Assembly (NCBI GenBank): GCA_044229355.1
Contig: JBGATF010000005.1
Coordinates: 309,161-373,160 of the forward strand
Source: Limisphaerales bacterium
Lineage (GTDB): Bacteria; Verrucomicrobiota; Verrucomicrobiia; Limisphaerales; JADJPG01
Direction of reading: 5' to 3'
DNA: 64,000 nucleotides
Within the stretch, counting starts at the first letter, position 1. Each line of letters opens with the position of its first letter. The position numbers and the translations under genes were made by a program. Shown piece by piece: positions 2,770-34,500 of the stretch. Under the pieces are notes generated by a model. It did no database searches. It was given only the letters and a program-made list of their open reading frames with translations, and was not told where the DNA came from.

Positions 2770-5430
2770 ATGAAAGCGTTGCCCATCCTTCTCGCGTTCG
2801 CCGCCGTGTCCTCCCTCCCCTGGACAACCCGCTCGGCGGAAATCGTGCCACCTCCCGCGGGCACCAATCTCATCCGCGGCGTCGTGCAGTTCACCAATGT
2901 GGACCCGGACATCCTGGCCCGGCTGGGCCCCCCGGGCGAGGAGGGGTTGGGGAGCCTGACTGTCTTCGCCTACACGGACCCACCGGACTCGCTCCAGGCT
3001 ACGAAAAATCTCACGGCTGCCGATCCACTGAGCGTGCCCTACGAGCTCACGGTCGCGGCCGATGACCAAGCGAGAGCCTATCATCTCTACGCCTACCTGG
3101 TCATGGACGGCGACACCGAGGAATATTGGACCAGCCCGGTCCTGGCGTCGGACCTCACCAGCAACTCGCCGCCAGCGACCGTCAACCTCGAGGAATGCGT
3201 CGCGTTGGTCGAAATCCAGTATCAAAGAGCCGATGGCACCCCGGTCGCTGCCAGCGGCGGGCGCGCCAATGTTTACCAGATGGATCCGCCGGCGGGCCTG
3301 CGCGCGCGCTACGGCACCCAACCGCCTGGCCGGACGGGCAATTACCTCGTCGTCCCGGCTGGGGTGGAATTACTGCTCGAGGTGGAAGTGGACAGCGGTT
3401 CCGACGCCTACGCGGACCGCGTGACGCATCGGGAGTCATTCCTGCGGACTTTTGGGTGTGACGAAAAGCCCGTGTTGATCCTGACTATCCCGGAGCCGGA
3501 GGCGTTGGGGCAGATCGTCGGCAATCTCAATCTGGTCGGCGAGCTGGAGCTGCCGACGGATGGCTACCTCGAGCTGCTGGGCCGGCCGGTGATGCGGGCC
3601 GCCGGGCCGCTCGGGAATAAACGACTGGCGGATCCCGGCGCAGAATGGCCCGGGCCCGATGCGGTGCGCACGTTCGCGCTCGCGGGCTTGGTGCCGTCGT
3701 CTCCGTCCGAGACCTGGAGCGTGGCCGGCGAGATCCAGTTTGGCCTGGGCGATCGCTTCGAATACTTCCGCACGCCCGCCCTCGGCGAAGGCACGAACAA
3801 TCCCGGGGTCATTGTCACGGCCGGAAATTCCACGGACGTGGGCGACTCCTTCGTGATGACGCCGTCCCGGCTGACGGGGACCATTACGCTGACCGGGCCG
3901 CCCGAGTTGGACGGACGGCAATCCGGCTTGCGCGGCCTGGTGCGCGCTGGCGATTACGATCCGAATTCGGACGGAATTCCGGACGGCGTGGGACCCGTAG
4001 GCATTGGGGGCAGTTATGTCTACGCCCGGGGCGTGGATGAGCTGGCGGTCGGGTCCAGTCTCTCGACGGCGGGCGGCCAGGCCCTGGCTTCCTTTGCGGG
4101 GGGCTTCGACGGAGGCTCGTCAGCTTTTGCGGGGGATTACGTTGTGACCGTAGGGGCATTGAACGACGAGCCCGGCATTTGGAAACTGGACGGGATCAAC
4201 CTGGCGATCGAACATCCCGGAACCAACAACGCCCCATTGGTCAGCGAATCGATCTACATCACCGAAGACGAACTCTGGCAGGGACCGTTGCTGCCGGGCG
4301 AGACTGTCCGTCAAGACCTGCGATACGGCATGGCCGAAGTCTGTCTGCGTTTGCGATCCCCGGCGCCGTTCTTCTATCCGCGGGTGGTGGGCAGTCTCGG
4401 TGCGTTCAACGGCATCGATTGGGAGGGGCGACCGCGCTCCTACCAATCCTACCTGAGTCTGGCCTCCGCCCCGCCGTATGCCGGGGGCGGCACGACGATG
4501 GACGCGACGATCTCCATGTATTTGCCGGAAGGTACGTATCGCTTGCAGCCGGCGATCAGCGTGCCGGATGCCGACGGCGGGGTGTCGGAGGTGCAGTTGC
4601 CTCCGGTGGACGTCACGGTCGCCGCGCGGGAACAGGTGTGCCTGGATGAATGCCTGCAGATTGTCCTGACGCCGCCCTTCTGCGCCACGAACTCGGGCTT
4701 CGTGGCTTTCGCGGAAGCGTTCTCGTGCGATTCGACCCTGACCAACCTGAGCTTGACCAGCCGGTCGCTGGATTTTCCGGGCATCCGCCTCGGCTACTCC
4801 GACATTCGAATTCTGGCGCCGGTGGGAACGCCGCGGGCGACGCTCAAGACCGGGCACGCCTTGTTCCCGGAGTTCGATTATCCAGGGCACCCGGAATACT
4901 ACTCGAACATCGTTTGGACGGCCGAAGCTCGCGACACCCGGGGTCGGATCGCCACCCGCCAATTTATCGGTCGGTATCCTTTCGCCACGCCGCCGCTGAA
5001 CTGTCCCGATATCAGCGTCCGGTCGGCCAATGGCGTGGACGCCCCCGTGGAGTTCGGGTTGGTTGCGCCGGATGGCGGATCTCTGAACTGCATCCCGCCG
5101 AGCGGAAGTGCATTCCCGGTGGGAGTGACGCCCGTGACCTGCGTGATTCGGGACGTGTGCCGCAATACCAACACGTGCACGTTTCAGGTCACGGTCTCGC
5201 CGTCAACGGGCGGGTGCGATGAACCAGCATTGCGGATCCTGCCAGCTCCCGTTTCGGCGGGCGGCAGCCCCGCACTCACGCTCACTTGGGACTGCGGAGT
5301 TTTGCAGAGCGCCCCGGATCTGGAAGGCCCGTGGGCCACGGTTCCGTCCGCGACCAGTCCCTGGACGATTTCGGCCGATGCCGACCGACGATTCTACCGG
5401 GTTTGTTTGGCCGCGGTGTGCCCGGAGTAA
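2770..5430 (+). CDS. Secreted beta-rich protein with a HYR domain and C-terminal RFYRV domain
   Basis: Signal peptide MKALPILLAFAAVSS; HYR-like CIPPSGSAFPVGVTPVTCVIRDVCRNTNTCTFQVTV; tail LTLTW..LQSAPDLEGPW...RRFYRV. Confidence 0.8.
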   Translation: MKALPILLAFAAVSSLPWTTRSAEIVPPPAGTNLIRGVVQFTNVDPDILARLGPPGEEGLGSLTVFAYTDPPDSLQATKNLTAADPLSVPYELTVAADDQARAYHLYAYLVMDGDTEEYWTSPVLASDLTSNSPPATVNLEECVALVEIQYQRADGTPVAASGGRANVYQMDPPAGLRARYGTQPPGRTGNYLVVPAGVELLLEVEVDSGSDAYADRVTHRESFLRTFGCDEKPVLILTIPEPEALGQIVGNLNLVGELELPTDGYLELLGRPVMRAAGPLGNKRLADPGAEWPGPDAVRTFALAGLVPSSPSETWSVAGEIQFGLGDRFEYFRTPALGEGTNNPGVIVTAGNSTDVGDSFVMTPSRLTGTITLTGPPELDGRQSGLRGLVRAGDYDPNSDGIPDGVGPVGIGGSYVYARGVDELAVGSSLSTAGGQALASFAGGFDGGSSAFAGDYVVTVGALNDEPGIWKLDGINLAIEHPGTNNAPLVSESIYITEDELWQGPLLPGETVRQDLRYGMAEVCLRLRSPAPFFYPRVVGSLGAFNGIDWEGRPRSYQSYLSLASAPPYAGGGTTMDATISMYLPEGTYRLQPAISVPDADGGVSEVQLPPVDVTVAAREQVCLDECLQIVLTPPFCATNSGFVAFAEAFSCDSTLTNLSLTSRSLDFPGIRLGYSDIRILAPVGTPRATLKTGHALFPEFDYPGHPEYYSNIVWTAEARDTRGRIATRQFIGRYPFATPPLNCPDISVRSANGVDAPVEFGLVAPDGGSLNCIPPSGSAFPVGVTPVTCVIRDVCRNTNTCTFQVTVSPSTGGCDEPALRILPAPVSAGGSPALTLTWDCGVLQSAPDLEGPWATVPSATSPWTISADADRRFYRVCLAAVCPE

Positions 5431-5581
5431 CGCCGGCGTCATCGGGGGCAGATGACGCGCCGCCGTGCGTCGTCGACTCGGTGCGCGGTGCGGATGAGGG
5501 GATGAAGGCGAAGGCGTCTCCCGGCCTGCGCGCCCGAGCCGGACGCCACGGGTGCGCTTGGACGTGGCGGTCACTTCTGTC

Positions 5582-5699
5582 CCGGAGCGCGGGCGTCCGG
5601 CCCGCAGCGGCACGTTTCGAAGGCGCGGCCCGAAGATTCGTTGACGCGTCGCCAAGTCTACCCGCTGCGGATCCCGCGATGGCGGGATCCGCGGCCCGA
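5582..5699. repeat. REP/MITE-like palindromic element, family A
   Basis: Left arm GGAGCGCGGGCGTCCGGCCCGCAGCGG; right arm CCGCTGCGGATCCCGCGATGGCGGGATCCGCGGCCC closely matches 37546-37582. Confidence 0.7.
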
Positions 5700-5783
5700 A
5701 TGTTCAGGTGATCGCCATTTCCGAACGCACACCTGCGCCACCTGGACTTTGACACCTTGGATCGGCGTGCGCATAGTGGGCTA

Positions 5784-7169: not shown

Positions 7170-7346
7170 ACGGGCGCGGGCGTCGGCGATGAGCCGGCCC
7201 GGTTTTGGGTTCCAACCCTACGGTTCCAAAACTACGGCTTTGCAAGCGGACGGGTTTTTGTTAGCCATGATCGCAAGCCGACGGCAGGGGACATCCGGGC
7301 GGCGGTGCGGTAATCCTTCATCACTCACCAAAAGAAAGGGCATGGT

Positions 7347-7505
7347 ATGGCTGGGCAACCACGTCGAACGACACATCGAAGCAGTGCGGGCAAAAAACTT
7401 TATGCGGTCCGGGACAAAACCGGGAAGTTCAAAGACATCCAGACCTTCGAGCGCGCGCATCGCGCGGACCTGGCCCGGAAAAGCAAAACGGAAAAAAAGA
7501 AATGA
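7347..7505 (+). CDS. Small basic hypothetical protein (52 aa)
   Basis: Not in the ORF track (too short). MAGQPRRTTHRSSAGKKLYAVRDKTGKFKDIQTFERAHRADLARKSKTEKKK; purine-rich RBS AAAGAAAGGG upstream; stop overlaps the next start (ATGA). Confidence 0.7.
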   Translation: MAGQPRRTTHRSSAGKKLYAVRDKTGKFKDIQTFERAHRADLARKSKTEKKK

Positions 7506-8305: not shown

Positions 8306-8308
8306 GCC

Positions 8309-9231: not shown

Positions 9232-9295
9232 TTCCAATTAATTTCGCGCCGGGCCGCTTCCATCCGCGGCCGCACGCGTCCACTCCAGTTTCGCA

Positions 9296-9334: not shown

Positions 9335-9391
9335 CCCCATCGCCGCAGCCCGGCGGACCGGCCCCGGCCGAATCGGCCGCCCTGGTGTCTG

Positions 9392-12965: not shown

Positions 12966-13041
<76 letters not shown>

Positions 13042-13356: not shown

Positions 13357-16300
13357 CTACTGCAGCCGCGGCGTGACGAGGCGGTAAAAGCGGCGCGGTC
13401 CGCCGGGCGGTCTGGGATCCATCACCTGCACCGGGTGATCATTCGTCGTGGCGACGACATCGGCGACCCGGCTCCAAGCGCCCTGCGTGACGTTTGTGGT
13501 GCCGATCACCGTGTAGGTGCGTCCGGCAACCGCATTGAAGTCCAGCCGCACGTTGGGCGCCGGGTTGGCCTCGGACGAGGCGCTGGTGATGCGGAGGTAG
13601 CTCTGGGGATCGCGCGGGTCGGTTCCGGCAATGAATTCGTCACGGTTTGACGAGCCATCGTGGTCCAGGTCCTGCAGTGCGTCAGCGGCGCTGTTGGTGT
13701 TCATGCCGGAGGCAGCCTCCCAGGAGTCGGGAATGCCGTCGCCGTCGAAGTCAGCCACCGAGGTGATGGTGGCGAACAGGGACCCGACTCCGCTGGGGCT
13801 CGCCGCGTTGCGGACGACGACCCGGTAGTTTTGGTTTCCGAGCGTAGTGGGTGCCGGAAAGGTGTAGAAGTCGGTCGTGGCGTCGGAGTAGTTGGTGGAA
13901 ACGGGCGTGGAGCTGCGGCGCCATTCGTAGCTGAACGGGGCAGGGTGCCCGTCGATGCTCACGCTCAACGTGACGGGAGCGCCGGCGGCGACGATCTGCG
14001 AGACGGGCTGCACCAGAATCCTGGGTGTGACCAAAATGCTGAGCGTGACGGCGTCGCTGAGCGTGGGTCCGATGTCATCCTGGACGCGCACGCGGTAGAC
14101 TCCCTCATGCGCGAACTGGACGTCGGTGATGACGAGCTGGGGCGCGGTGGCGCCGGGGATCGGGACGTCGTTAAAGAGCCATTGGTAGCGAAGGGTGCCC
14201 GTGCCGATGGCCACAACCGCGAAGACTGCGTTCGTGGGGACGGGCCCGAGTCGGACCGCGACATTGGTCGGCTGGGTGGTGACGGTGGCGGGGATGAGCA
14301 CCGCGAGATTGGCGCTCGCGCTGAGAACGGACCCGGCGCTGTTTTGGACGAGAACGGAATAGGCGCCTTCCTGGCTGCTCTGGACGCCGACCAGCGTCAG
14401 GGTCTGATTGGTGGCGCCGGCGATGGCGCCGCCGTTGTAGCGCCACTGGTAGGTGAACGGTGGCGCGCCCGCGAGCGACACGGTAAAGGTGGCGGACTGA
14501 TCGCGAATGGCGGTGACGGGCTGCGGGTCGATCGCGATGACGGGCGGGAACTGAACGACGAGCAGGGCGCCGTCGCTCAAGGCGCTCCCGGCCGCGTTGG
14601 CGACGGAAACGCGATAGGTGCCGGCGTCATCTTCGCGAAGGTTGGCCAACGTGAGCGTGGCGTTGGTGGCACCAGGAAGCGGACCGCCGTTGTGTTCCCA
14701 CTGAAAGGCAAAGGGAGGAGTTCCGCAGACCGCGACCGTGAACGTGGCGGTGCCGTTGGTGGGCGCGACGCGTCCGCGGGGTTGCAGGGTAATGGTCGGG
14801 AGACCGGCCGGGAGATTGGCGCGTCCACGTCCCGGAGTTGAGGGCTCGGAAGCCCAGTTGAACGGCTGGTTGCCGGCAGCAGAGGCGTTGACCCGTTGGA
14901 GCGAGTTGCCGGTGCCGTCGGCACCGCAGGGCCACGGGGACTGGTCGGCGTAGAGGACTTCGTCGACGACGATCCAGCTGATCGCGTCGCCCGGCAGATC
15001 GGGGGCCTGGGGTTTTTCCAGCGCGACGCGGTCGCTGCGGTTCGCCAGCTTGCCCAGATACGGACCGACGATCTGCAAGGCCGGATCGGTGACGCCGTAA
15101 CGGGTCTTGAACGCTGCCAACTGCGCGGGGTTCGCCACCGGATCAAAGTTCACCACGATCAGGCGTTCGTCCGCGGCCAGCGTGACCGGGCCCTGGAAGT
15201 CGAACGAAACCCCGCCGTTCAGGCGCCAAACCCCATTCGAGTTCGCCAGAAGTACAGGGCTGGGGGCCACGTTCTGCAGCTCGACGAACTCCTCGACGGA
15301 ATTGTCGGTCGGAACGCCGTTCACCAGGATGTCCTGCGGATGAAATTGAATTTCGCTGATGACGATCGACGGGCTGGGGGCGGCGTTGGCGGCGTTACGC
15401 GTCCGGGGTGCCAGCGCGAACCAGTCAGGGCCGCCATCCGGGTAGCGTCCGAGCGACCAGTCGTTTTCCTGGGCCTTGAAGCTGACGGCATCGACGACGC
15501 GGTCGGCAGCGGTGCCGGGGAGATAAGAAAGGAAAACCTGTTCGCCCGCCTTGTTGAGGCCGAAGCCGATGTTCGTTGGGTTGTGAAACCCGGTGACTTC
15601 ATCGAACGAGACCCAGCCGTGGGCGGGAATCGTGGTGGTGGCCGGGACGGCCCATTTCTTGAGCGCGTCGTAGGTGGCTCCGTCGTCGCTCAGGTACCAG
15701 CCTGGACCGAGGGTGAGGGGAATTTCGGCCGGGTTGTAGAGCTCGATCCAGTCGTTGGAATCGAGCTCGGCGGTAAAATCGGTGTGCGCCACGATTTCGT
15801 TCAGCAGCGGAGCAGCGGGAGGCGGCGGATCGGCGTGTCCGGGCGATCCGCGCAGATACGCGCTGGAGTGCCAGTTGCCCGGGTAGTCAGCGCTGCCGGC
15901 GTTTTCGGCGGACACGGCCGACTCGGCGAGAACGAGGGAGTGGCCGGCTCCGTCCGCGGCCGGCGGCCAACCGCGGCCGTCGCCATAAGTGAAGTTGAGA
16001 ATGTCAGTGCCGCCGGCGCTGGTCCGGAGGACGAGCTGTTCACCGCCGTTGTTGAGGCTGCCGGAGTAGGGGCCGTAGACGGCGACCGTGCCGGGGATTT
16101 GGTAATAGGCACGAAAGGCGGAGAGATCGGCGGTGCCGGCCAGCACGAGGTAAGCGCCGGGCGCCAGCGAGGCGCCCGCGGCAAATGTGTAGTCGATGCC
16201 CTGGGTGAACTTCACGCCGCCGAGTTGGAGCGTAAGGGTCGAGCTCGCGTTGTAGAGCTCGACGTATTCGAAGCCGCCCGGCGCCGGGTTGAACATGATT

Positions 16301-19300
16301 TCCGTCAGCCGGAGGTTATCGATCAGGTCCGGCTGGTTGAGCGGCTCGCCGCAGGTGAACTCGAACGGCGCGGACCAGTTGCTGTTCCGCCCGGTCTGAT
16401 CCGTAAAGAGGACGCGGACGCGATACCGGTTGCCCACCCGGAGGAACTGCGGCGGAATTTGGACGGTGTCGAAGAAGGGGGTGATGTCGCCACTTTCCCA
16501 GACGGGCTCGATTTCGTATCGGCGCGGCTCGCCGGGGGCGGCGGTGATCTCGCCGAGGCGCCAGCGCAGGGAGCGGAAGGGGTTGGCGCCGGCGTAGGCG
16601 GAGCAGCGGAACGTGAGCTGGTTGAGCGGCAGTTCCACCGGCCCGGTGTAGGTGAGGGTCGGTCGCGCCGGCCGCGCGTCATCGCGCGCCATGGTATCGA
16701 GCGAAAAGACGGCGTTGGTCGAGCGATAGTCGACGTAGCTCTTCATCAGCTGGATGCCGCCCGCGAAGGTCTTGGGCAGGTTGGGCGGATTGGGCGTCTG
16801 GGTGGGCCATTGGTAATAGCGGCCTTGTCCGGCCTTGGCGGTGGGATTGGCGGAGTAGACGGCGTCGATCATCTTGGGGTTGTAATCCCACATCGAACGA
16901 TCGGCATCGAGGATGGTGGGGGCGTTGGTCGGCCCGCGCAGCAGGGCGGCGTATTCGTCGATCAAGGTGTAGGCCTGATCGTTGTTCCAGAGCAGATCAC
17001 GGATCTCGCGGACCCGATTGCGGAACTCGACGTTGATGGTGGGCAGGCGCCCGGGGCTGGCGAAGTTGTCGAGCAGCCGGCTCTTGAGCGGCTCGTCGCC
17101 GCCGGTCTGGCCGCCGCGATACATGTTGTCGGCCCAAGTCAGATCCAGGTCCCAGGTGCAGGTCTGCCAGAGGCGGGTCTGCGGGTTGCGATAGAAGAAA
17201 TAGTTTTTGCCGTCGGCGATGTCGTAGTGATGGATGCCTTGAACAATGGCCTGATAACTGTAGTGGCTCGGGAGGTTCCAATTGGTGCGCCACCATTGTT
17301 CGGACGCGCTCGTGTAATTGGCCTGAAGAAAGTTGAGATCGGATTTGTCGGTCGGGCCGAAGGGCCCGACGTTGTTCAGCTCGCCGGTGCCGCCCTCCAT
17401 CTTGTAGAGGTTGCCGTCGGGCAGGTCGTGCTCTTCCAGGAACCGGCCGTTCTCCTGCTCGAGGGCGAGATACACGCCCCAGAAATCCCCTTCGAATTGG
17501 GACGTTGTCGCGGCCTCTGCCGCCTCGTCGACGACGCGGAAGGTGCAGAAGGTCGATTTGGGCGCGGCCACGCCGGCGAGATTGAACAGGCGAAAGCCGA
17601 CGGACTCGAACATGCCCTGCTCGCCGCGGTGGTTGAAGTCGCCCTGCTGGATGCTGGCGCCGAGGTTGAGCTTGGACCACGGCACGGCGTACTTGCGGCC
17701 CCAATTGTCGCGCATCTCCAGGTCATGACCGCGGTTCAAATCGAATTTCCACATGTTCTTGCACATGGAATAACGCCAGACGCCGCCGCGCGCCCGGTAG
17801 CGGATGTGGTCGAGCACCTGGCCGTCGTAGACCAGCGTGCCCAGCCACTGGTAGGCATCACCCCCGTAGCGGCTGAACCACGTGGCTGTCGCAATCGTAT
17901 TGCTGCGCCCAATCAAGTGAAAGACCGGCAGGCGCCCCATCGTGTTGCTCGAGTAATTGACCACCGTGCCCAGCGCGTCCGCGGCGCCGGGCCGGACCGC
18001 CCCGCGCCAGGCCGGGACGCCGTCATACACGAAATAGGCAAAGTTCGGCTGGGCATCTTCCGCGTAAGGGACGGTCGCCGATTTGCCGAGCCGATCGGTG
18101 ACGGTCAGGCGGTAACGGACAAGCCGGCGGTGTTGCTGCACCGAGGCGGGGATCTGCGCGGAGAACGTGTCGTCGTTGGGGGTGGCGTCGCCGTTGATCC
18201 CCGCGTCGTTCATCGCCACGACAATCCAATTCGCCGCGTTGGTGTAGGCGGCGTCGGTCAGCTCGATGTACTGGCCCGGATTCACAATTTGATAGGCGAG
18301 CGAGACGCTGCCGACGCCCTGGGGATCGGTGACTTTGGCGGTGATGGTGACGGGGCTGCCGCTGACGGGCTGTCTGGGGGTGTGATCCACCTGCCGGACG
18401 CTGGGCGGCGCGTTGGTGGCGAAGACCGTGTTGACGCGACCCGGCGTGGGTCCGGAGCCGCCGGTGGCGCCGATCTGGCCGATCAGGCGCGCGTCGAAGA
18501 AGAAGTCGCTGCTGCCGGCGAGCGAGGAGTTGTGCGCCTGGACGGCCAGCGTGTTGACTCCCGGGACGAGCAGGCTGCCGGGCAGCCCGGCCAGGTTGAA
18601 GGCGACATAGTTGAGATTCTCGAGCGCAGCCACGGCGGTGCCGCTGAACGGGACTTCGCCGGCCGTCATGTTGGCGCTGCCGTCGATGACGAGGACGCCA
18701 TTGATCCAGGCCTTGAAGCCGTCATCGTATTGCGCCTCCAGCAGCAGCGAGTTGAACTGGGCCGGGTTGTCGATGGTGAATTGTTTGCGAAGAAAAACCG
18801 AGGTGTAGCCGCCGGACATGTCGGGCAGCGGGGTGACGATGAAGGTCTCGCCGTAGCCCAGGGGAAGGCTGGCCTGTTCCCAGCTGGAGTCGTTGAAGGC
18901 CGGCTGGCGCCAGCTCGTGACCGGGGTGGAGGCCTCGTTGGTTCCGCGGACAAATTTCCACGAGGCCAACGCGGGAACCAGGGTGATGTTTTGCGCAGGT
19001 GTTCCGCCGGACCCTGACCCCGATGGGCGCCAGCTGCTCCCGAGATCGTTGTCGAGCCCCGGGTGAATCAGCTCGATCGATTTGCCCGCGCCCACGGTCG
19101 TGGCGTCCCCGACGATCGGCCAGGGAAAGGCGGCTCCGTAGGATACTTCGTCAACGATGGCTCCCGCAGCGTCCCGCAATGTGATCGTGTCGCCGCGTCC
19201 ACCCAGGCTCGAGTAGCCGTCCGGGCGAATGGGTCCCAGCGCGCCGGTCGCGGCGAACTTCGATTGGAGGAATGCCGGGTTTTGGGCCACGACGACAAAC

Positions 19301-19542
19301 CCGCCGGGAACCACGTTGGTCGCGGGGAAGGTGAAATCCAATCCGTTGGAGAAACGCCAACCGAGGAGGTTGATGGCTTGCGGGCCGGTGTTGTAGAGCT
19401 CGATGAACTCGGCCGGCTCGGTCTTCACGTCCGGGTTGTAGTGAATTTCGTTGATGACGATGCCGGCGGAGGCAGGGTGCGCGATGGCATTGACCAGGGA
19501 GGCGACGGCGACGAGGCGGGACGAAATACGGCTGAACTTCAT
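13357..19542 (-). CDS. Giant secreted CotH-kinase / lamin-tail-domain / Ig / TSP3-like protein
   Basis: Signal peptide MKFSRISSRLVAVASLV (ATG 19542); LTDs (INEIHYNP..EFIELYN, four copies); CotH (GVYLALEQ, KNYFFY, WDLDLTW); Ig repeats (YQWRYNG); DFDGDG/DLDHDG; ends RRFYRLVTP. Confidence 0.88.
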   Translation of the reverse strand: MKFSRISSRLVAVASLVNAIAHPASAGIVINEIHYNPDVKTEPAEFIELYNTGPQAINLLGWRFSNGLDFTFPATNVVPGGFVVVAQNPAFLQSKFAATGALGPIRPDGYSSLGGRGDTITLRDAAGAIVDEVSYGAAFPWPIVGDATTVGAGKSIELIHPGLDNDLGSSWRPSGSGSGGTPAQNITLVPALASWKFVRGTNEASTPVTSWRQPAFNDSSWEQASLPLGYGETFIVTPLPDMSGGYTSVFLRKQFTIDNPAQFNSLLLEAQYDDGFKAWINGVLVIDGSANMTAGEVPFSGTAVAALENLNYVAFNLAGLPGSLLVPGVNTLAVQAHNSSLAGSSDFFFDARLIGQIGATGGSGPTPGRVNTVFATNAPPSVRQVDHTPRQPVSGSPVTITAKVTDPQGVGSVSLAYQIVNPGQYIELTDAAYTNAANWIVVAMNDAGINGDATPNDDTFSAQIPASVQQHRRLVRYRLTVTDRLGKSATVPYAEDAQPNFAYFVYDGVPAWRGAVRPGAADALGTVVNYSSNTMGRLPVFHLIGRSNTIATATWFSRYGGDAYQWLGTLVYDGQVLDHIRYRARGGVWRYSMCKNMWKFDLNRGHDLEMRDNWGRKYAVPWSKLNLGASIQQGDFNHRGEQGMFESVGFRLFNLAGVAAPKSTFCTFRVVDEAAEAATTSQFEGDFWGVYLALEQENGRFLEEHDLPDGNLYKMEGGTGELNNVGPFGPTDKSDLNFLQANYTSASEQWWRTNWNLPSHYSYQAIVQGIHHYDIADGKNYFFYRNPQTRLWQTCTWDLDLTWADNMYRGGQTGGDEPLKSRLLDNFASPGRLPTINVEFRNRVREIRDLLWNNDQAYTLIDEYAALLRGPTNAPTILDADRSMWDYNPKMIDAVYSANPTAKAGQGRYYQWPTQTPNPPNLPKTFAGGIQLMKSYVDYRSTNAVFSLDTMARDDARPARPTLTYTGPVELPLNQLTFRCSAYAGANPFRSLRWRLGEITAAPGEPRRYEIEPVWESGDITPFFDTVQIPPQFLRVGNRYRVRVLFTDQTGRNSNWSAPFEFTCGEPLNQPDLIDNLRLTEIMFNPAPGGFEYVELYNASSTLTLQLGGVKFTQGIDYTFAAGASLAPGAYLVLAGTADLSAFRAYYQIPGTVAVYGPYSGSLNNGGEQLVLRTSAGGTDILNFTYGDGRGWPPAADGAGHSLVLAESAVSAENAGSADYPGNWHSSAYLRGSPGHADPPPPAAPLLNEIVAHTDFTAELDSNDWIELYNPAEIPLTLGPGWYLSDDGATYDALKKWAVPATTTIPAHGWVSFDEVTGFHNPTNIGFGLNKAGEQVFLSYLPGTAADRVVDAVSFKAQENDWSLGRYPDGGPDWFALAPRTRNAANAAPSPSIVISEIQFHPQDILVNGVPTDNSVEEFVELQNVAPSPVLLANSNGVWRLNGGVSFDFQGPVTLAADERLIVVNFDPVANPAQLAAFKTRYGVTDPALQIVGPYLGKLANRSDRVALEKPQAPDLPGDAISWIVVDEVLYADQSPWPCGADGTGNSLQRVNASAAGNQPFNWASEPSTPGRGRANLPAGLPTITLQPRGRVAPTNGTATFTVAVCGTPPFAFQWEHNGGPLPGATNATLTLANLREDDAGTYRVSVANAAGSALSDGALLVVQFPPVIAIDPQPVTAIRDQSATFTVSLAGAPPFTYQWRYNGGAIAGATNQTLTLVGVQSSQEGAYSVLVQNSAGSVLSASANLAVLIPATVTTQPTNVAVRLGPVPTNAVFAVVAIGTGTLRYQWLFNDVPIPGATAPQLVITDVQFAHEGVYRVRVQDDIGPTLSDAVTLSILVTPRILVQPVSQIVAAGAPVTLSVSIDGHPAPFSYEWRRSSTPVSTNYSDATTDFYTFPAPTTLGNQNYRVVVRNAASPSGVGSLFATITSVADFDGDGIPDSWEAASGMNTNSAADALQDLDHDGSSNRDEFIAGTDPRDPQSYLRITSASSEANPAPNVRLDFNAVAGRTYTVIGTTNVTQGAWSRVADVVATTNDHPVQVMDPRPPGGPRRFYRLVTPRLQ

Positions 19543-19644
19543 GGTTTCACAACGCGGATTGAGCGCCAAAAGTCCGGCACGGCCGGCCGGTTGGCAAGTG
19601 GCGATTTCGGGACGCCGGGGAAAGACCCAGACCGAGGCGCTTCT

Positions 19645-19674
19645 TTGGGCCGCGGGTTTCCAACCCGCAGCGGC
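19645..19674. repeat. Single REP arm, family A
   Basis: TGGGCCGCGGGTTTCCAACCCGCAGCGGC is a near-exact reverse complement of 13277-13306. Confidence 0.7.
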
Positions 19675-19765
19675 GGATGCCGATCTGGCCATGCATCGGT
19701 TCCGGCGCAGGTCGACAGCGGGGGGGCCTCCCAATCGAGCCCATTGGCGGGGTGTTGCCGCCCGG

Positions 19766-25027: not shown

Positions 25028-28000
25028 TTAAGGCGCGGGCGCGGGGCCTGGCGTGACGAGACGATAATAACGGGAGGCGTTGCCGGCGGGATCTCCGACG
25101 GTGACCGCACGATCAGCCGTCCCGGAGGGAACTTCCGCCAGCCGCGTCCACGACCCGCTCGGGAGGTTGTCCGTGTATTGAATCACGTACGTTCGTCCCG
25201 CCTTGGCGTTGAACTGCACCTGGAGAGGCCCCGGACCCGTGGTGGCGACGACTCGCAGGTAACTCGTGGGATCATTCGGGTCGGTGCCCGCAATGGTTTC
25301 CGCCAGATTCGACATGCCGTCGCCATCCAAATCGCCCTGGGCGTCGGCGGGGTTGTTTTTGTCGAGATGCGGCGTGGCATCTTCGACGGAATCGAGGATC
25401 CGGTCGCCGTCGGTGTCGGTGGCCGTCGTGATGTTGGCGAAGGCGGTCGCGAAGCCGGGTGAGATGAAGAACGCGTTGGTGACCACGGCGCGGTATTGGA
25501 CGTTCTGGCCGGGCGGGTTGGTGGCGAAGACCGTGAACACGCTGACGGGCGCGTCGTTGGCGAACAGGGCCAGCGGAACCGAGCCGCGGCGCCATTGGAA
25601 GTAGAACGGCGGCGGATACCCCGTCACGACGCAGCTCAGGCCGACCAGCGTTCCGGGCGCGACGATGTTGGACACGGCCGGTTGCTGGGCGATGCCGACC
25701 TGGATGACAGGGTAGAGAACCGCGTTGGAGCTGTAGATGGTACCGATGGCGTCCGTCACCGCGCACGAAAGGGCCCCGTAGTCATTGGTCGTGACATTGA
25801 CCACCGTATACGTGTTCGCCGTGGCGCCGGGAATCTCGGCGCCGTTGAACCGCCATTGATACGAGAGCGGCGGGTTCAGCGTTGTGGCGCCCACGGCAAA
25901 CGTGGCGTTGGTGGTGGGAGCCGCCTGGGCGTCCGGCTTGATGCGGACGAACACACTTTGCGGGTGCGAGACGATGCTGGCCGGGATTTGCACCGTCAGG
26001 CGGGCATCCTGGCTGAGGGCGGCGCCGGACGCGTTCAAGACGGCGACGGAATAAAGGCCGGCTTGTTCCGGGGCGACATTGGCCAGCGCGAGGATGGAGC
26101 TGGTTTCGCCGGGGATCGGGCTGCCGTTGTAGCGCCACTGATAGGTGAACGGCCCGGGGCCGGTGGCGATCACGCTGAAGGTCGCGGTGAGCGTGGCCAG
26201 GACCGTGGAGTCGATCGGTTGTTGGGCGATCACCGGCGGGTTGCCGCCGCCGAATCCGGCGCCAGCGGTGCGAGCCGCCGCCACCCAGTTGCCGGCATCG
26301 TTGCCGTAGGCCGCCAGGTTGCGCCGTTGCAGCGATGGCCCAATGCCGTCCGCCGCCGCGGGCCAGGGCGTGGTGTCGGTATAGCGCACCTTGTCCACGA
26401 CAATGTAGGGCACGGAGTTGGTGTCGGGCACATCGGGCCGGACCAGCTCGACGCTGTCCGTCGAGTTATCCAACTGGCCGGAGAACGGTCCGTAGAGCGC
26501 GACCTGGGCCGGCACGTTGTTGCGGGCGCGGAAGGCATCGGCCTGCGCCGGATCGGTCGGATCGATCGGCACCACGAGCACGTAGGCTCCGGCCGGGATC
26601 GTCGTGCCCGGCGGAAATTCATAGTCCACCGCATCGCGCAGCCGCCAGGAATTGGTGGTGCTGGACAACTCGACCGGCGACGACGAGTTGTTGTGCAGCT
26701 CGATGTATTCATCGATGCAGTTATCCACCGGGCCGCGGCCGAGCAGGACGTCAGGCGGATGGTAGTTGATTTCGCTGATGACGATGGGCCCGACCAGCGG
26801 GCCGGCATTGGCCGCACCGAGCGTGGGGCTGACCTGGGTCACGAATTGGTCGGAGCCGGTGCTGTTGACGAAGCGCCCAAAGGTCGCGCCGCTGGCCTGC
26901 GCCCCGAAATCCCAGCCGTGGACATATCCCGTGAGCGCGCCATCGGCATCCGCTGAAAACAGGTACACCTGATCGCCTTTGCCGCCGAAGGCGAAGGCAT
27001 TCGGGCCGACACCAAACGTGTCGCCTTGATTCAGCACCAGGTAGCCGCCCGCCGCGATGACCGTGCCCGCCGGGATCCGGTATTTCTTCGGCGTACCAAA
27101 ATCGTCGGTGAGATACCAATTGCCGACATTCACGTCGGCTCCGGTCGGATTGTGGAGCTCGACGGCGTCGTTCGGCAGCGGGTCGGTGTGGGTCAGGATC
27201 TCATTGACGAGAATCGGCGCGATGGCGGGGTCGCCGGCATCGGCGGCTCCGGGATTGCCGCTCAGGTTGGCGCTCGGGCGCCAGCTGCCGGCGTCATCCC
27301 ACGATGCTGTCGGAAGCGCGTCGTTGCGAATCACCAGCGAGAAGCCCGCCCCATCGGTGGTGGGATACCATCCATCTTTATAGGTGAAGTCGAGAATGGG
27401 CTCGTGGGCGCGGCCTTCGAGGACAATGTGGTCGCTGTCGTTGGCGAGATTGTCGTTCGTGTAAACTCCGAGGATCCGTGGGGCCGCCCCGTAGCGGGAG
27501 GCAAAGGCGGCGGCGTGCCGGACGATCACGGCATACTCGCCGGGAGCGAGGGTGACGTTCGGGAAGTCGAAGTCGACTCCGCCGCGCAGGCGAAAGCCAT
27601 TCACATTGAGGGGCGCGGTGTCGGTGTTCCGCACTTCGATGTATTCGAAGTTATCCGCGTCGTTGGTATTGCCCGCGGGCGCGGCCGGCGGGTTGTACAT
27701 GATCTCCGTGATGCGCAACGCGGGCGTCGCCGTGTAGAACGTGCGGGCGCTCGGGCCGGACCAAATGCTGTTGATCGGCGGGTTGTTCGGCCCGGTGAGG
27801 TTTTTGTGGGATGGGTTATACGAGCGGGCGACGATACGCACGTTGCCGTTGATGGTGACGGTGACCGGGGCGTTGTTGGAGAGCGCGGTGGGCGACACGA
27901 AGCCGTTGGGCAGCCGGGGATCGGTGCCATCGAGGGTGTAGATGATGGAACTGCCCGGCTTGCCGGCCGGGATGAGGGTGACCTGGGTGCCAGGAGTGAC

Positions 28001-30991
28001 CAGCCCGCCGGCACTGCCAATCACCGGCATGTCCAGGAAGTTGGTGTCCATGAAATTCAGCCGGGCCCGGTACCAATGCTTCTTCCACGTGACCTCGTCG
28101 AGATAGGTCCCGCTCCCGCTGCCGTTGGTCCCGCGAGTCGTGACATTCCAGCGGGCGCGCTCGCGCGGCTGGGCGTCCTTGAGCTGGTTATAGAGCTCGT
28201 CGATTCGCTTCATGATGTTGTCCGTCGAGAGCGAACGACCGGGCTGGCGCTCGGCCTGATAGCGGTCGATCCAGGCCTGCCAGAAGTCCGGGGCGCGCAG
28301 CAGCGTTCCCCACCACGGCGCGAAGTTGAAGAAGTCCGTGCCGAAGTCGCCGGTTTGCGATCGCCAGGTGCGCGGATTGGCGTCACGGCCGTCGGTGGAG
28401 CCTTGCGTCCGATCGTAGTCCCAAGCCGGGCCGTATTCGATGCGCTTGTTGCGGTCCTTGAACAGATACCCGCTCAGTCGCAGGGCATCCACGTTGAACG
28501 TGAGGACCTCGTGCACATGGCGGCGGACCCATGACTCGGGGTCAATGTAGTACGAGTAATGGTTCGTGTTGGGCGCTCCGCCCGCCAGCGTTGCGTTCGT
28601 GAGGTTGGCCCCGTTCAGTCCGGCGGCAAACGCATTGAAGTAACTCTGCACATAGGCGCGCTGCGGAGCGCGCACCGCGTTGGTCCAGTCGGTCCAGCCC
28701 GGCTCCAACGGATTGAGCGCGCCGCCGGTCACGCTGACCGTGCCTTTGCCGGCGTCGGTCCGGTCGATGCTCAAGAGGTAGCCTCCGGTCACCTCGGGAT
28801 AGTTGACGTGCTCCGGCTCGAGCTTCTGGATGTCGACGCGATTCTTGTCGCGCTTGATCTTTTCCTCCAGCACGTAGATGCCGTGGTAGTCGCCGTTGGC
28901 GGAGGTGAACCCCGACGAGGTGATGGGGCCGGGATTGCCCGTGTCGTCCTTGAGAAACAGCTCCACGAACTGGTAGCGGGACGCGTATTCGCCGCCGTCG
29001 CGGGCCAGTTGATGGGCGAGGGGATTGTGGAACAGCGCCGGCTCGAAACCGTTGGGCGCATACAGAACCCAGTCGGATTCCGCGGGTAGCCCCAACAACG
29101 GGACGGCCCGGTCGTCATCGAGTTCGTCCCGCACCTCCAGGAAGAACGCGGCCTTGCCGGCGGAGCTGGTCTGGGTGCTGGAGCCGCGGGTGTGCATGAT
29201 GCCGCGCGCCGACAGCGTCGGCTGGTTGGTCATCGACGCCACCCCGCACGGATTTTCAAACGTCTGCAGGTAGACCCAACGTTCGCCGGTGGCCGAGCTG
29301 TCCGCGGGGAAAACGCCCTGGCCGAAATTGTGCACGATCATGATCGGCAGCTCAGAGGCGAAATTGAGGACGTTCGTTTGCGTGGTCAGGGCGAGGTACG
29401 CCTTGCTGACGATGGGCCCGGGCAACTCGCCCGGAGCAAAGGCCCGGGCGCGAATCACGGTGCTGGCGTTCACCCGAATCGGGGTGGTGTAACGAAACGA
29501 CGTGGCGCTGACATTGGAGCCCGGCAGGTTGGTGCCAAAGCTGTAAAAGATCGCCGAGGGGACTCCCGGCGTGCTCAGCACCAGGTCGAACGGCTGATTG
29601 GTCGGGAACGTGCCGTGGTCGCGCGAAAAGGTGACCGACGGGGAAATGCCGCTGCCGCTCGTCGCGTTAGCCGCCCGCGGCGTCGGCGTTTGAAAGTAGC
29701 CCGTGATGGATGGGTTCAGCCGGTCGCGCCCATAGGAGACGTCGGAGGTCTGTGCCGGGTAGGTCGGGGAAAACGCAGAGATGACATTTGTCTGCGGGTC
29801 GACCAGGGCGAGATATTCCCCCGTGTTGTTGAGCTGAAAGCTCGTGTGCAAAAAGGCCGGGTTGTTCGTCTCGTTGCGCCCGGAGGCAAACACCACGAGG
29901 TACTGCCCGGCGTCAATCGTCCGCGCGGGAAAGCGCCACTTGGTCAAATTCGCCGGATCATCGGTCAGATACCAGCCGAGCAGGTCGCCCGTGGACTGTC
30001 CCGGGTTGTAGATTTCGATCCAGTCGGATTGATTTCCGTAATTGTCGTTCAGCGTCCGGGTGTTTTGAGCCATGAATTCGCTGATCAGGAACGTGGACGG
30101 AAGAATGTTGGGGTTGACGATGTAGGTCCAGGAGGCACCGGCGAACGCGTTCGGTGCGGGCGCCAGATCGGTGATTCCGTGCCCGCTGGCGAAGGCCACG
30201 GTCACGGCGCCGGTCGGCGGGGGCGGAAAGGTGAAGATGAACTGGCCAGGAACGCCAAAAACGATATTGGTCGCGGGCTGGCCGTTGATCAACAAGTCGG
30301 CGGCGTCGACGCCCTGGACCGGCTCATTGAAGATCAGCTCGATCGAATCCAGGGAGCGCACGATGCCATTGGCCGGCGGCCCGATCGTCTGGAGAACCGG
30401 CGCTTGGGTGTCCGCCTCCGCCGTCAGTTGCATCGCAAAGCTGATGTCCGAACTCGTGCCGTTACCTTGATGCATCTCAACGGCAATGACGTTGTTGCCC
30501 GCCTGCAACGCCCCCACCGGGATGGTCACGGTCTCGGGCGAGTAGTCGCTGGCCGTCGTGGCCAGGGTGGCGCCGGTCACAGGCCCGTCCGGCAGATTGA
30601 TCCGGTAAACTTCGACTCCGTTGACATAGACGGCCGCGCCGTCGTCATAAACGAGCGTCATGCTCACCGAACTGAACGCGGCCGGGTTGGAAATGTTAAT
30701 CGACTTGCGAAACCACGTGGTGATGAACTTGTTGTTGGAATCCGGGCCGAAGCTGACCACGGTCGTCTCATCGCTGTCGCCATAGCCCAATTCGGCCGCG
30801 CCCGTCTTCCACGCGCTGTCGTCGAAGCCGGCGCCCGTCCAGCTGGGCAGCGGGTCGATGCCCGTATCCAGGTAGCTCCAGGTGGCATTTAATGGAATGA
30901 GGGTCTGGACTTGCGCGCGCGCGTCGGGCGCAGCGGCGAGGGCCAGGACGGCAGCAAGACCGGTCAACGACACGGTGAATTTGGTCTTCAT
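25028..30991 (-). CDS. Giant secreted CotH / LTD / Ig protein, tandem paralog A
   Basis: Signal peptide ending ARA-Q; jelly-roll-like N-domain (FDDSAW..G.AELGYG, DDGAAVYVNG); LTDs; CotH (RGSS, GIYVLEEKIK, WDYDR); IYTLDGTDP; Ig; DLDGDG; ends RYYRLVTP. Confidence 0.9.
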   Translation of the reverse strand: MKTKFTVSLTGLAAVLALAAAPDARAQVQTLIPLNATWSYLDTGIDPLPSWTGAGFDDSAWKTGAAELGYGDSDETTVVSFGPDSNNKFITTWFRKSINISNPAAFSSVSMTLVYDDGAAVYVNGVEVYRINLPDGPVTGATLATTASDYSPETVTIPVGALQAGNNVIAVEMHQGNGTSSDISFAMQLTAEADTQAPVLQTIGPPANGIVRSLDSIELIFNEPVQGVDAADLLINGQPATNIVFGVPGQFIFTFPPPPTGAVTVAFASGHGITDLAPAPNAFAGASWTYIVNPNILPSTFLISEFMAQNTRTLNDNYGNQSDWIEIYNPGQSTGDLLGWYLTDDPANLTKWRFPARTIDAGQYLVVFASGRNETNNPAFLHTSFQLNNTGEYLALVDPQTNVISAFSPTYPAQTSDVSYGRDRLNPSITGYFQTPTPRAANATSGSGISPSVTFSRDHGTFPTNQPFDLVLSTPGVPSAIFYSFGTNLPGSNVSATSFRYTTPIRVNASTVIRARAFAPGELPGPIVSKAYLALTTQTNVLNFASELPIMIVHNFGQGVFPADSSATGERWVYLQTFENPCGVASMTNQPTLSARGIMHTRGSSTQTSSAGKAAFFLEVRDELDDDRAVPLLGLPAESDWVLYAPNGFEPALFHNPLAHQLARDGGEYASRYQFVELFLKDDTGNPGPITSSGFTSANGDYHGIYVLEEKIKRDKNRVDIQKLEPEHVNYPEVTGGYLLSIDRTDAGKGTVSVTGGALNPLEPGWTDWTNAVRAPQRAYVQSYFNAFAAGLNGANLTNATLAGGAPNTNHYSYYIDPESWVRRHVHEVLTFNVDALRLSGYLFKDRNKRIEYGPAWDYDRTQGSTDGRDANPRTWRSQTGDFGTDFFNFAPWWGTLLRAPDFWQAWIDRYQAERQPGRSLSTDNIMKRIDELYNQLKDAQPRERARWNVTTRGTNGSGSGTYLDEVTWKKHWYRARLNFMDTNFLDMPVIGSAGGLVTPGTQVTLIPAGKPGSSIIYTLDGTDPRLPNGFVSPTALSNNAPVTVTINGNVRIVARSYNPSHKNLTGPNNPPINSIWSGPSARTFYTATPALRITEIMYNPPAAPAGNTNDADNFEYIEVRNTDTAPLNVNGFRLRGGVDFDFPNVTLAPGEYAVIVRHAAAFASRYGAAPRILGVYTNDNLANDSDHIVLEGRAHEPILDFTYKDGWYPTTDGAGFSLVIRNDALPTASWDDAGSWRPSANLSGNPGAADAGDPAIAPILVNEILTHTDPLPNDAVELHNPTGADVNVGNWYLTDDFGTPKKYRIPAGTVIAAGGYLVLNQGDTFGVGPNAFAFGGKGDQVYLFSADADGALTGYVHGWDFGAQASGATFGRFVNSTGSDQFVTQVSPTLGAANAGPLVGPIVISEINYHPPDVLLGRGPVDNCIDEYIELHNNSSSPVELSSTTNSWRLRDAVDYEFPPGTTIPAGAYVLVVPIDPTDPAQADAFRARNNVPAQVALYGPFSGQLDNSTDSVELVRPDVPDTNSVPYIVVDKVRYTDTTPWPAAADGIGPSLQRRNLAAYGNDAGNWVAAARTAGAGFGGGNPPVIAQQPIDSTVLATLTATFSVIATGPGPFTYQWRYNGSPIPGETSSILALANVAPEQAGLYSVAVLNASGAALSQDARLTVQIPASIVSHPQSVFVRIKPDAQAAPTTNATFAVGATTLNPPLSYQWRFNGAEIPGATANTYTVVNVTTNDYGALSCAVTDAIGTIYSSNAVLYPVIQVGIAQQPAVSNIVAPGTLVGLSCVVTGYPPPFYFQWRRGSVPLALFANDAPVSVFTVFATNPPGQNVQYRAVVTNAFFISPGFATAFANITTATDTDGDRILDSVEDATPHLDKNNPADAQGDLDGDGMSNLAETIAGTDPNDPTSYLRVVATTGPGPLQVQFNAKAGRTYVIQYTDNLPSGSWTRLAEVPSGTADRAVTVGDPAGNASRYYRLVTPGPAPAP

Positions 30992-31207
30992 GGGGGGGCG
31001 GCGGATTCTGACTCTACAGCTTGGGTTGGGAAGGCTGGGCGCTCACGGTCCTGCGGGAGGCTCCAACCCAGGCTTCGCGGGGCGACAGCACGGACGAATC
31101 GGCGAGGCGCCTGATCAATCCAGGAACGTCAAAACCCAAGCCCGGGCAAGACATGCCAGAGTACAGCAACGTCATAGGCAGCTTCCGTAGTGGAGTGGAC
31201 ACCGGGG

Positions 31208-31236
31208 TATATAGGCGACAACTGCCCGCGGGACAA
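31208..31236 (-). promoter_or_regulatory. Putative sigma70 promoter of paralog A (TTGTCC-N17-TATATA)
   Basis: Exact 17-nt spacing; the same layout is conserved upstream of paralog B. Confidence 0.65.
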
Positions 31237-31456
31237 CAAAAATTCCGATCGCCACCGGGGAACCACTGAACGTCGGCTCGCGCTCCGGACGGTTCCGGTC
31301 CTACAGCAAACAAGGCGGACGGGCGATGAGCCACGAACCCGGGGTGCGGGGTTCATTTTTGAATGGTGACTGGAGATATTTGATTCGGGATGTCCGCGTC
31401 CGACCATCCGCGCTCGTGAATCAATACTCGTCAATCAGAGCTGTCCTGAGCTCAGC

Positions 31457-31493
31457 AAAAGCAAAACCGCCGCCGGGCTGACCCGGCGGCGGT
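31457..31493 (-). terminator. Intrinsic terminator of paralog B
   Basis: Minus strand ACCGCCGCCGGG-TCAG-CCCGGCGGCGGT-TTTGCTTTT: perfect 12-bp stem plus U tract. Confidence 0.85.
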
Positions 31494-31549
31494 CGCGGAA
31501 TCGGTTTCCAGTTTGGGTTACCGGTGATGCTGAGCCCTTGTCCCGGGCT

Positions 31550-34500
31550 TCATTGGGCCGGAGCCGGCCCCGGCGTCACCAGGCGATAATACCGGCCGGG
31601 GCGGCCGGTTGCATCGTCGAGGGTCACCGTGCGGTCGCTGGCGCCGGTCGGGACGTCGGCCAGGCGCGCCCAGATGCTGGCGGAGAGGCTGTCGGAATAT
31701 TCCACCACGTACGTGTGCTGGGCCTTGGCCTCGAACTGAACCCGGACGGCCCCGGTGACCGGCGAAACGCTGACGCGCAGGTAACTGCTGGAATCGTTGG
31801 GGTTCGTGCCGGCGATGATTTCCTCGAGGTTCGTCATGCCGTCCCCGTCGAAATCTCCGGAGGCGTCGGCCGGGTTGTTTTTGTCGAGACCCGGCGTGGC
31901 ATCCTCAACCGCGTCGAGGATTAGGTCCCCGTCCGTGTCGACAGACGTGGTGACGTTGGCGAAGGCCGAGGCGAAGCCGGGCTGGGTGAAGAACGCGTTC
32001 GTGACCACCGCGCGGTATTGGACGTTTTGTCCAGGAGGGTTGGTGGCGTGGAGGGTGTAAACGCTGACGGGAGCGTCATTGGTCTGGACGGCGATTGTCA
32101 CGGAGCCGCGGCGCCATTGGAACATGTAGGGCGGGGGGTATCCGGTGACGACGCAGCTCAAGCCGACCAGGCTGCCTTGCGCGACGATGTTGGAGAGGGC
32201 GGGTTGCTGCGCGATGCCTACTTGAATGACCGGGTAGAGCACGGCATTCGAGCTGTAGATGGTCCCGATGGTATCGGAGACAGCGCACGAGTAAGCGCCA
32301 TAGTTGTTCGTCTTCACATCCACCACCGTGTAGGTGCTGGCATTGGCGCCGGGAATGTTCGCCCCGTTGAACCGCCACTGGTACGAAAGCGGCGGATTGA
32401 GCGTCGTGACGCCGACGGCAAACGTGGCGTTTGTGGTTGGCGCCGCCAGTGCATCGGGCTTGATGCGCACGAAGACACTTTGTGGATGCGAGACGATGTT
32501 AGCCGGGATAAGTACGGTCAGCCGTGCTTCCTCGCTGATGACGGCGCCCGACGAGTTCAGAACTGCGACGGAATAGAGACCGGCCTGTGAGGTCAGCGCC
32601 CCCGGAATGCTAAGGATCGAGCTGGTTTCGCCCGGGATCGGTGTGCCATTGAAACGCCATTGGTAGGTCAACGGGCCAGGTCCGGTGGCGATGACACTGA
32701 AGCTCGTGGACAGTGACGCGATGACCGTGGCATCGATCGGTTGTCGCGTGATGGTCGGCGCAAGCCCGCCACCATAGCCGGCGCCGGGCGTTCGTCCGGC
32801 CGCCACCCAATTGCCCGGGTCGTTCCCGTAGCCCGCGAGATTACGCCGTTGGAGCGAAGGCCCGAGCCCGTCGGCCGCCGCGGGCCAGGGGGCGGTCTGA
32901 GTGTAGCGCACCTTGTCGACGAGCAGATACGGCACCGAAGTGGTGTCGGGCACATCCGGCCGGACCAATTCGATGCTGTCGGTCGAGTTGTCCAGCTGTC
33001 CCGAAAAGGGTCCGAAAAGTTGAACTTCAGCCGGGACACCATTGCGTGCGCGGAACGCCGCCGCCCGGCCCGGATCGCTGGGGTCAATCTGCACCACGAG
33101 GATATAGCCGTGGGGCGGAATGGTCGTGCCGATCGGGAATTCATAATCCACGGCATCGCGCAACCGCCAGCTGTTGGTCGTGCTGAAGAGCGCGACGGAA
33201 GCGTCGGAATTGTTGTGCAGCTCGATATATTCATCGATGCAGTTGTCGACCGGGCCGCGCCCAAGCAGAATATCGACGGGGTGATATTGCACTTCGCTGA
33301 TGACAATGGGTCCAACCAGGGGGCCGGAATTGGCTGAGCCCAGGGTCGGGGAAACCTGGGTTGGGAATTGTTCGGAGCTGGCGCTGTTGACGTAACGCCC
33401 AAACGTGGCGCCGCTGGCTTGCGCGCCGAAATCAAACCCATGCACGTAGCCGGTCAAATTTCCGGCCTCGTCACCGGAGTAGAGATAAACCTCATCGCCT
33501 TTGGCTCCGAACGAGAATGCATTGGGCCCGATTCCAAACGAGTTGCTTTGGTAGAGCACGACATAGCCACCGGCGGGAACGACGGTGCCGGCCGGCAAGC
33601 GGTATTTTTTTGGCGAGTTGAAATCGTCCGTGAGGTACCACGAGCCGATGTCGACCGCCGCGCCGGTCGGGTTGTAAAGCTCGACGGCGTCTCCGGGGTT
33701 GGGGTCGGTGTGCGTGAGAATCTCGTTGATGACAATTCCGGCGACGATGCGTTCGCCCGGGTCGGCGGCGCCCGGCGTTCCGTTCGGCGTGCCGCTGGGC
33801 CGCCAACTGGCGGGGTCACCCCAGGCCGAGGTGGGGAACTGATCATTGCGAATGACCAGGGAGAAGCCCGCACCATCCGTGGATCGGAACCACTGATCGG
33901 TATAGGTGAAGTCGATAATGGCTTCCCCAAGGCGTCCGATGAGCACGAGGTGGTCGGAGTCGTTCGCCAGGTTGTCATTGGTGTAAACGCCCAGAATGCG
34001 GGGGGCCGGACCGTAGACCGAGGCGAATGAGCCGGCATTTTTGACAATGACGGCATACTCACCCGCGGCGAGCGTCACGCTCGGGAAATCGAAGTCGACG
34101 CCGCCGCGGAGGCGGAAGCCGCCGACGTTGAGCGGCTGATCGCTGGTGTTGCGGAACTCGACATATTCGAAGTTGTCCGCGTCGTTCGTGTTACCGGCCG
34201 GCGGGTTCGCGGGGTGATACATGACCTCGGTGATGCGCAAGGGCGGAACGCTCAGGTAATAACTGCCCGCCACCGGCCCGGACCAGAAGCTGTTCAAGAG
34301 CGGCTTGCCGACTTCGTTGCCGCGGTTCACCAGATTCGAGTGGCCCGAATTGTAACTCCGCGCATAGAGCCAGATGTTGCTCGTCACGTTCAGGTCCAGC
34401 GGGCCGGCACTGAGAATCGCTGTGGGCGAAATGGCGCCACCTGGCAGCCGCGGATCCGTGCCGTCGAGCGTGTAGTAGATAACGGATCCCACTTCTCCGG

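Follow-up and report, generated by a model that had tools for sequence, protein, structure and literature searches.

We analysed a 64,000-nucleotide stretch of the genome of a Limisphaerales bacterium (GenBank assembly GCA_044229355.1, contig JBGATF010000005.1, positions 309,161 to 373,160; hereafter the window) and found that four exported proteins encoded in it, P0001 to P0004, end in copies of one uncatalogued domain. This tail domain is predicted to be a folded unit of ∼55–80 residues and six β-strands, a derivative of the fibronectin type III (Fn3) domain truncated after strand F. It occurs in ∼7% of the genes of this one genome, mostly at the very end of the protein, and is common across the order. 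As to its role, we tentatively favor, at a probability of roughly 40%, a cell-proximal docking or retention module. Verrucomicrobiota are major degraders of polysaccharides in soil and water, and we know of no account of the means by which their enzymes and giant adhesins come to sit on the cell or outside it. The tail profile can serve both as a ready-made computational marker of the phylum’s exported surface proteins and as a concrete handle for experiments. A docking or sorting role, if it is borne out, would make the tail the phylum’s functional counterpart of the C-terminal domain (CTD) of Bacteroidota’s type IX secretion system (T9SS).

The initial annotation of the window had noticed that P0001, a protein with an HYR domain, and three CotH proteins, P0002 to P0004, share a C-terminal β-rich domain closing in R(F/Y)YR(L/V); alignments, profiles, and a motif count bear this out. 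The P0001 tail (residues 818–886) lies at 5221..5427 on the forward strand, with a hidden Markov model (HMM) match window of 5221–5403. The other three lie on the reverse strand, at 13360..13599 in P0002 (from YLRI to the last residue; HMM match 13369–13626, independent E value 7e-19), at 25031..25261 in P0003 (9.7e-21), and at 31553..31783 in P0004 (2.1e-19). The last 60–85 residues of the four proteins have no match in Pfam or NCBIfam, and the domain is not described in the literature that we searched, most subscription journals lying outside its coverage.

We ran an HMM built from the four tails over the 87,451 stop-to-stop frames of the window’s genome (G000; 9.93 Mb in 60 contigs, 95% complete). 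It matched 105 frames, and four further rounds brought the total to 402 domains in 396 frames, with the domain 10 or fewer residues from the stop in 349 of them. The genome-wide check proposed with the initial annotation thus returned matches that are mostly C-terminal. In a count made without any HMM, the motif [FYVI][YF]R[LVAI] turned up 286 times within the final 12 residues of the 4,177 genes of at least 200 amino acids, against 9.8 expected at the rate found in the body of the proteins; the shared ending is far beyond chance. Among 5,639 rough gene calls of our own, a profile of the long form of the domain identified 343 carriers, 303 with the domain at the end. When long and short forms were taken together, 388 genes carried it, 339 of them C-terminally, and these carriers make up 17.6% of all coding residues. 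Among genes of at least 1,500 amino acids, 110 of 196 have the domain. Overall, 87–88% of copies sit at the extreme C-terminus, and ∼12% are N-terminal or internal.

The copy in P0001 had been described as the shorter one, and it indeed belongs to a separate subtype. Against leave-one-out profiles of the long form, the P0001 tail scored marginally (E 0.41 and 0.0042). A cluster of tails missed by the long profile defined a short subtype of ∼55 residues, and the profile of this subtype, built without P0001, matched P0001 at E 2.1e-15 and 55 bits, with residues 831–878 as the core. The long and short forms merge on profile iteration.

The distribution of the domain follows lineage. The placement of G000 in Limisphaerales is in keeping with its TopA, which shares 90% identity with the TopA of a metagenome-assembled genome labeled as such. 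Within this order, all but one (G018) of 31 genomes give matches to the profile, with 17 to at least 150 in each, as do 55 of 151 genomes sampled across the phylum Verrucomicrobiota at E 1e-6 or better. None of 61 Pseudomonadota genomes and neither of two Nitrosomonas isolates gave a match. A library of 1.84 billion representative proteins yielded 52,144 matches with E values of 0.001 or lower, and 6,463 with values of 1e-10 or lower. A search of the ESM Atlas returned unnamed clusters only, with Verrucomicrobiota as the commonest taxon.

To describe the fold, we used an alignment of 24 diverse tails (A1), the first row of which, the P0003 tail, was the sequence modeled. AlphaFold2 gave a predicted local distance difference test score (pLDDT) of 86.5 and a model with six strands as assigned by DSSP. 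The most conserved positions of the tail are W, Y/F, and R. None of the 24 tails matches PF00041 (fn3), even at E values up to 10; Pfam places no fn3 hit on the tail of any of the four full proteins, and Foldseek returned no match at E 0.001 or better. The best Z score in a VIA fold search was 7.0; Fn3, Tencon, and monobody chains scored 5.6–6.5 (Fn3 overall 5.6–7.0), a range that the tool itself labels as common. Among sequence profiles of Protein Data Bank entries, the best match was partial and led to a carbohydrate-binding discoidin module (E 9e-4); Fn3 matches were to neuroglian (E 0.019) and 3mpc (E 0.036).

Two library proteins that match the tail profile in part, P0007 and P0025, are true PF00041 arrays. 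When A1 was aligned with their PF00041 units by hhalign, the probability was 88.8% (E 2.5e-6); a reversed alignment reached 0.3%, and immunoglobulin-like (Ig) units of the CotH proteins 0.2%. In this alignment, the RFYRV of the tail falls on the fn3 strand RHYRVSA, the tyrosine-corner strand F. Where the tail comes to its end, 14 columns of the template, covering the FG loop and strand G, are still unmatched. The units of tandem arrays are also shorter in the tail family, 71–79 residues vs. ∼99 in canonical fn3 arrays. Since the tail ends right after strand F, RFYR(L/V) is itself the tyrosine-corner strand, and a G strand is absent. The tail is thus a member of the Fn3 superfamily at the level of profile–profile and fold comparison, with six predicted strands in place of the canonical seven (A, B, C, C′, E, F, and G). 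With Fn3 domains (PF00041 and bacterial Fn3-like domains, such as 3mpc), it shares the β-sandwich, a W in strand B, a Y-x-[VL] tyrosine-corner strand, and the tandem arrays. It differs from them in having units that are ∼20–25 residues shorter, without FG loop or G strand, in its strong bias to the very C-terminus, and in its restriction to a lineage.

The end of the chain is itself constrained: 4–5 residues follow the YR in 216 of 334 tails, and the last residue is proline in 181 of the 334, against 10.8% in other long frames. The cargo ahead of the tail is diverse. When any local similarity was allowed to join them, 345 cargo parts formed 89 groups; when similarity had to extend over half of the length, they formed 234. 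The cargo domains found in relatives are of extracellular type (GH9, amylase, astacin, S8, M36, GH16, and pectate lyase), as is the CotH cargo of the window. On a crude test, signal peptides are enriched among carriers, both in frames (268 of 349 carrier frames vs. 2,062 of 8,397 other long frames) and in gene calls (228 of 343 carriers vs. 1,446 of 5,296 others). For all four window proteins, inspection by eye shows a basic residue at the likely start and a hydrophobic stretch after it, in agreement with the signal peptides that had been assigned to them. Three further properties were uninformative: lipobox-like starts (20 of 343 carriers and 239 of 5,296 other genes), the isoelectric point of the tail (median 8.3), and cysteine content (two or more in 11 of 303 tails).

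The domain order in the window’s CotH proteins is enzyme, three to four Ig domains, TSP3-like repeats, and tail. The DxDxDG...AGT(D/N)P calcium-binding-like repeats that the initial annotation reported before the CotH tails are present, with DxDxDG visible by inspection, and fall just below the cutoff of 25 bits for Pfam TSP3_bac (PF18884). P0002 has two such repeats and AGTDP adjoining the tail (13609..13752, reverse strand; 18.2 bits), P0003 has two repeats and AGTDP ahead of it (25271..25417, reverse strand; 22.2 bits), and P0004 has one repeat and AGTNP (31793..31855, reverse strand; 22.6 bits), with an additional DTDGD repeat immediately upstream in the protein. Across the genome, TSP3-like repeats precede 62 of 303 terminal copies. 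The tail closes 108 of 119 CotH relatives, and the majority of the remaining ones seem to be truncated where a contig stops.

Not all copies are terminal. In 47 of the 396 frames, the domain lies elsewhere, directly after the N-terminus in ∼15 and internally in ∼15, and the protein then ends in another domain, such as DUF1800 (three cases), FGE-sulfatase, an esterase, M23, OmpA, a lipase, a metallo-β-lactamase fold, or a multiheme cytochrome. Among the best 150 library proteins, 149 contain several copies; every unit keeps RFYRV, and 128 of the 150 still end in a copy. Some library proteins consist of a signal peptide and tail-family units only.

It is this architecture that suggests docking. 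The order of enzyme or binding parts, then Ig or TSP3-like spacers, and then the tail is the layout of cell-anchored surface proteins, and binding and anchor modules typically behave as the domain does, occurring at one end of a protein or the other and in tandem arrays. In Verrucomicrobiota, the domain closes hundreds of Sec-exported enzymes, adhesins, and giant repeat proteins. We also count in favor of docking the abundance and mostly terminal position of the domain, its extracellular type of cargo, its conserved W, Y/F, and R, the partial match to a carbohydrate-binding discoidin module, its retention in CotH relatives, and our having found no T9SS, C25, or sortase gene that would process a tag. 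The catalytic or binding parts would lie at the N-terminal end, the Ig or TSP3-like spacers would serve as a stalk, and the terminal domain would hold the protein noncovalently on a component of the envelope. SLH domains, dockerins, cell wall-binding repeats, and carbohydrate-binding modules resemble the tail in being modular, mostly terminal, single or in tandem, and attached to many unrelated enzymes. In contrast to these, the tail belongs to none of the families by sequence or fold, and neither a cohesin-like partner nor a ligand was identified.

Several points weigh against a docking module. No binding partner or ligand emerged from the analysis, and signal peptides were called with nothing finer than a crude heuristic. 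The conserved W, Y, and R may be just core residues of the fold, because every tandem unit keeps them. The sharply defined chain end suits recognition of a free C-terminus by a machine equally well. In a comparison of 39 CotH orthologues by segment, the tail showed the lowest conservation, with a median identity of 38% compared with 41–58% for the other segments, a result that is as compatible with a spacer as with an anchor.

An export or sorting signal similar to the T9SS CTD, which we consider possible but unlikely, would be recognized as a folded terminal β-sandwich by an outer-membrane translocon, perhaps with cleavage and attachment to follow. The terminal position and tightly defined end of most copies would suit such a signal, as would the hundreds of unrelated exported cargos per genome and the lineage-restricted range. 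T9SS CTDs are likewise borne, in a given genome, by Sec-exported enzymes and adhesins that are unrelated to one another and number in the tens to hundreds, and they are poorly conserved in sequence except at a few motif positions. Their size and β-sandwich class resemble those predicted for the tail. The type A CTD of Bacteroidota (PF18962) is a small β-sandwich at the extreme C-terminus, as the tail appears to be. Related work on T9SS CTDs includes PMC5445135 and PMC4560394. However, the tail has no sequence match to the type A CTD, and whereas a T9SS CTD would be expected to be strictly C-terminal and present in a single copy, ∼12% of tail copies lie elsewhere and tandem arrays exist. The N-terminal and internal copies in 47 frames, the arrays, and the domain-only proteins all argue against an export signal, as does RFYRV being a structural strand that is kept in internal units. 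Moreover, 32 of 85 signal peptide-positive genes of at least 1,500 amino acids lack the domain. The fold search that had been proposed as a check returned generic Fn3/Ig-like matches; T9SS CTD chains are not among the matches listed, which does not exclude similarity.

Searches for a matching machinery were negative. SprA_N was not found in G000, although the same model was also silent in the control genomes, so that this negative is weak. Por_Secre_tail (PF18962) matched none of the 24 tails and nothing in the whole genome, and here too the control genomes stayed silent. A C25/PorU-like peptidase was considered as the processing enzyme and rejected for G000, where no Peptidase_C25 was found; 27 of 151 genomes of the phylum have one. 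No sortase was detected in G000 with a model that, as a control, matched in three genomes. Secretins do not discriminate, since they are also present in the tail-free relative G018 (three matches, compared with eight in G000). Among 999 neighbors of the 343 carriers (two genes to either side), no gene family was strongly enriched, which again counts against an export signal; apart from the family described next, those with modest enrichment are large exported proteins themselves. L099, a protein that begins with a tail domain and ends in an OmpA domain, was considered as a general anchor and rejected, as it occurs in only 4 of 31 related genomes.

Two observations made in the course of these searches stand apart. 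A family resembling extracytoplasmic function (ECF) sigma factors, a label that rests on the start of one member’s sequence, lies within two genes of carriers for 14 of its 34 members (P = 0.002, uncorrected for multiple tests). Outside the window, G000 also encodes a giant secretin (L111; C38:88527–100664, reverse strand) in a frame of 4,045 amino acids without a tail domain. Its parts are a GspD N0 domain, 36 Secretin_N stretches (PF03958; 1,138 bits), and, at the C-terminus (residues 3823–3988), a Secretin domain; an ordinary GspD has about three such N domains. In the relative G011, a secretin match falls in a frame of 4,142 amino acids.

The same genome also has C-terminal elements of the PEP-CTERM kind. 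PEP-CTERM, LPXTG, GlyGly-CTERM, and MYXO-CTERM, according to 10.1101/2023.06.07.544157, consist of a motif, a transmembrane helix, and a basic cluster. Like PEP-CTERM, the tail is a C-terminal element common to unrelated exported proteins; unlike it, the tail is predicted to be a soluble, folded β domain and has no hydrophobic helix. Signals of this kind occur side by side with the tail domain in G000, which has three exosortase genes and 33 frames with PEP-CTERM-like tails. None of the 33 also carries the tail domain, which we count in favor of export. The proposal of a sorting tag in the initial annotation is partly supported. It is borne out in the terminal position, the constrained chain end, the unrelated cargo, and, on the crude test, the enriched signal peptides; it fares less well with the nonterminal copies, the arrays, a motif that is a structural strand, and a machinery that was not found. 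Anchoring, which it had named alongside secretion, is suggested as strongly as sorting or more so.

We consider it possible but unlikely that the tail is a passive terminal cap or Fn3-type spacer that has spread through the phylum by domain shuffling and has no role in targeting or binding. Fn3 domains often act as linkers in bacterial enzymes, and both the placement of the tail in the Fn3 superfamily and its tandem arrays agree with such a role. So do its standing as the fastest-evolving segment of the 39 CotH orthologues and the failure of our searches to turn up a partner or machinery. Yet a spacer at the very end of a protein spaces nothing, and the great majority of copies are terminal. 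The constraint on the chain end and the retention of the tail in nearly all CotH relatives also speak against a passive module, and the large share of coding residues taken up by its carriers is hard to square with no function.

We give little credence to strand complementation, in which an incomplete Fn3 domain without strand G would accept a donor strand from an envelope protein or another carrier and carriers would thereby be docked or polymerized: the six predicted strands, the fn3 alignment that stops after strand F, the short units, and the free end directly after the edge strand would fit, but six-stranded sandwiches can stand alone, AlphaFold2 is confident in the monomer, and we know of no donor sequence. 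It would be equally speculative to suppose that, by docking of this kind, the ∼7% of genes with a tail feed one new, Verrucomicrobiota-specific route of surface display or matrix assembly.

The genes of the four window proteins are as follows. P0001, an exported protein of 886 amino acids with its HYR domain at residues 777–809 (Pfam) and a tail of the short subtype, is translated from 2770..5430 on the forward strand. The three CotH proteins, which also contain LTD and Ig domains, are encoded on the reverse strand. P0002 occupies 13357..19542, with a likely start at MKFSRISS, residue 65 of a long frame that spans 13357–19734. P0003 (1,987 amino acids, from translation and Pfam) occupies 25028..30991. 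P0004 lies at 31550..37120, with a likely start at MKYLRSHG, residue 246 of the long frame 31550–37855. The long frames of P0002 and P0004 thus overrun their likely signal-peptide starts by 64 and 245 codons, respectively; the extension of the P0004 frame is rich in SRGS repeats and overlaps a divergent methyltransferase gene at 37563–39011 on the forward strand.

A fifth carrier, a PKD/CarboxypepD_reg protein, runs off the start of the window (3–2558, reverse strand). Its full gene lies at C60:305242–311718 of G000, and its tail, of the short subtype, is at residues 2098–2157, outside the window. Two unusual arrangements were seen elsewhere in the genome. In four frames (for example, L110 at C7:73317–75335), an internal tail domain adjoins a C-terminal FGE-sulfatase domain (PF03781), several of the proteins being paralogues; the T9SS protein GldK/PorK belongs to the FGE-sulfatase fold family. 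In L095 (C7:197354–202270), the tail domain at residues 1140–1197 is followed in the same open frame by an N6_N4_Mtase domain at residues 1380–1594, and this continuation into a methylase may stem from the loss of a stop, from misassembly, or from a fusion. The window also contains, at 45718–51002 (reverse strand), an ordinary and conserved gene cluster with no relation to the tail domain, namely a run of MoxR AAA ATPase, DUF58, DUF4350, and DUF4129 genes next to which lie genes for RDD and SpoIIM-like membrane proteins.

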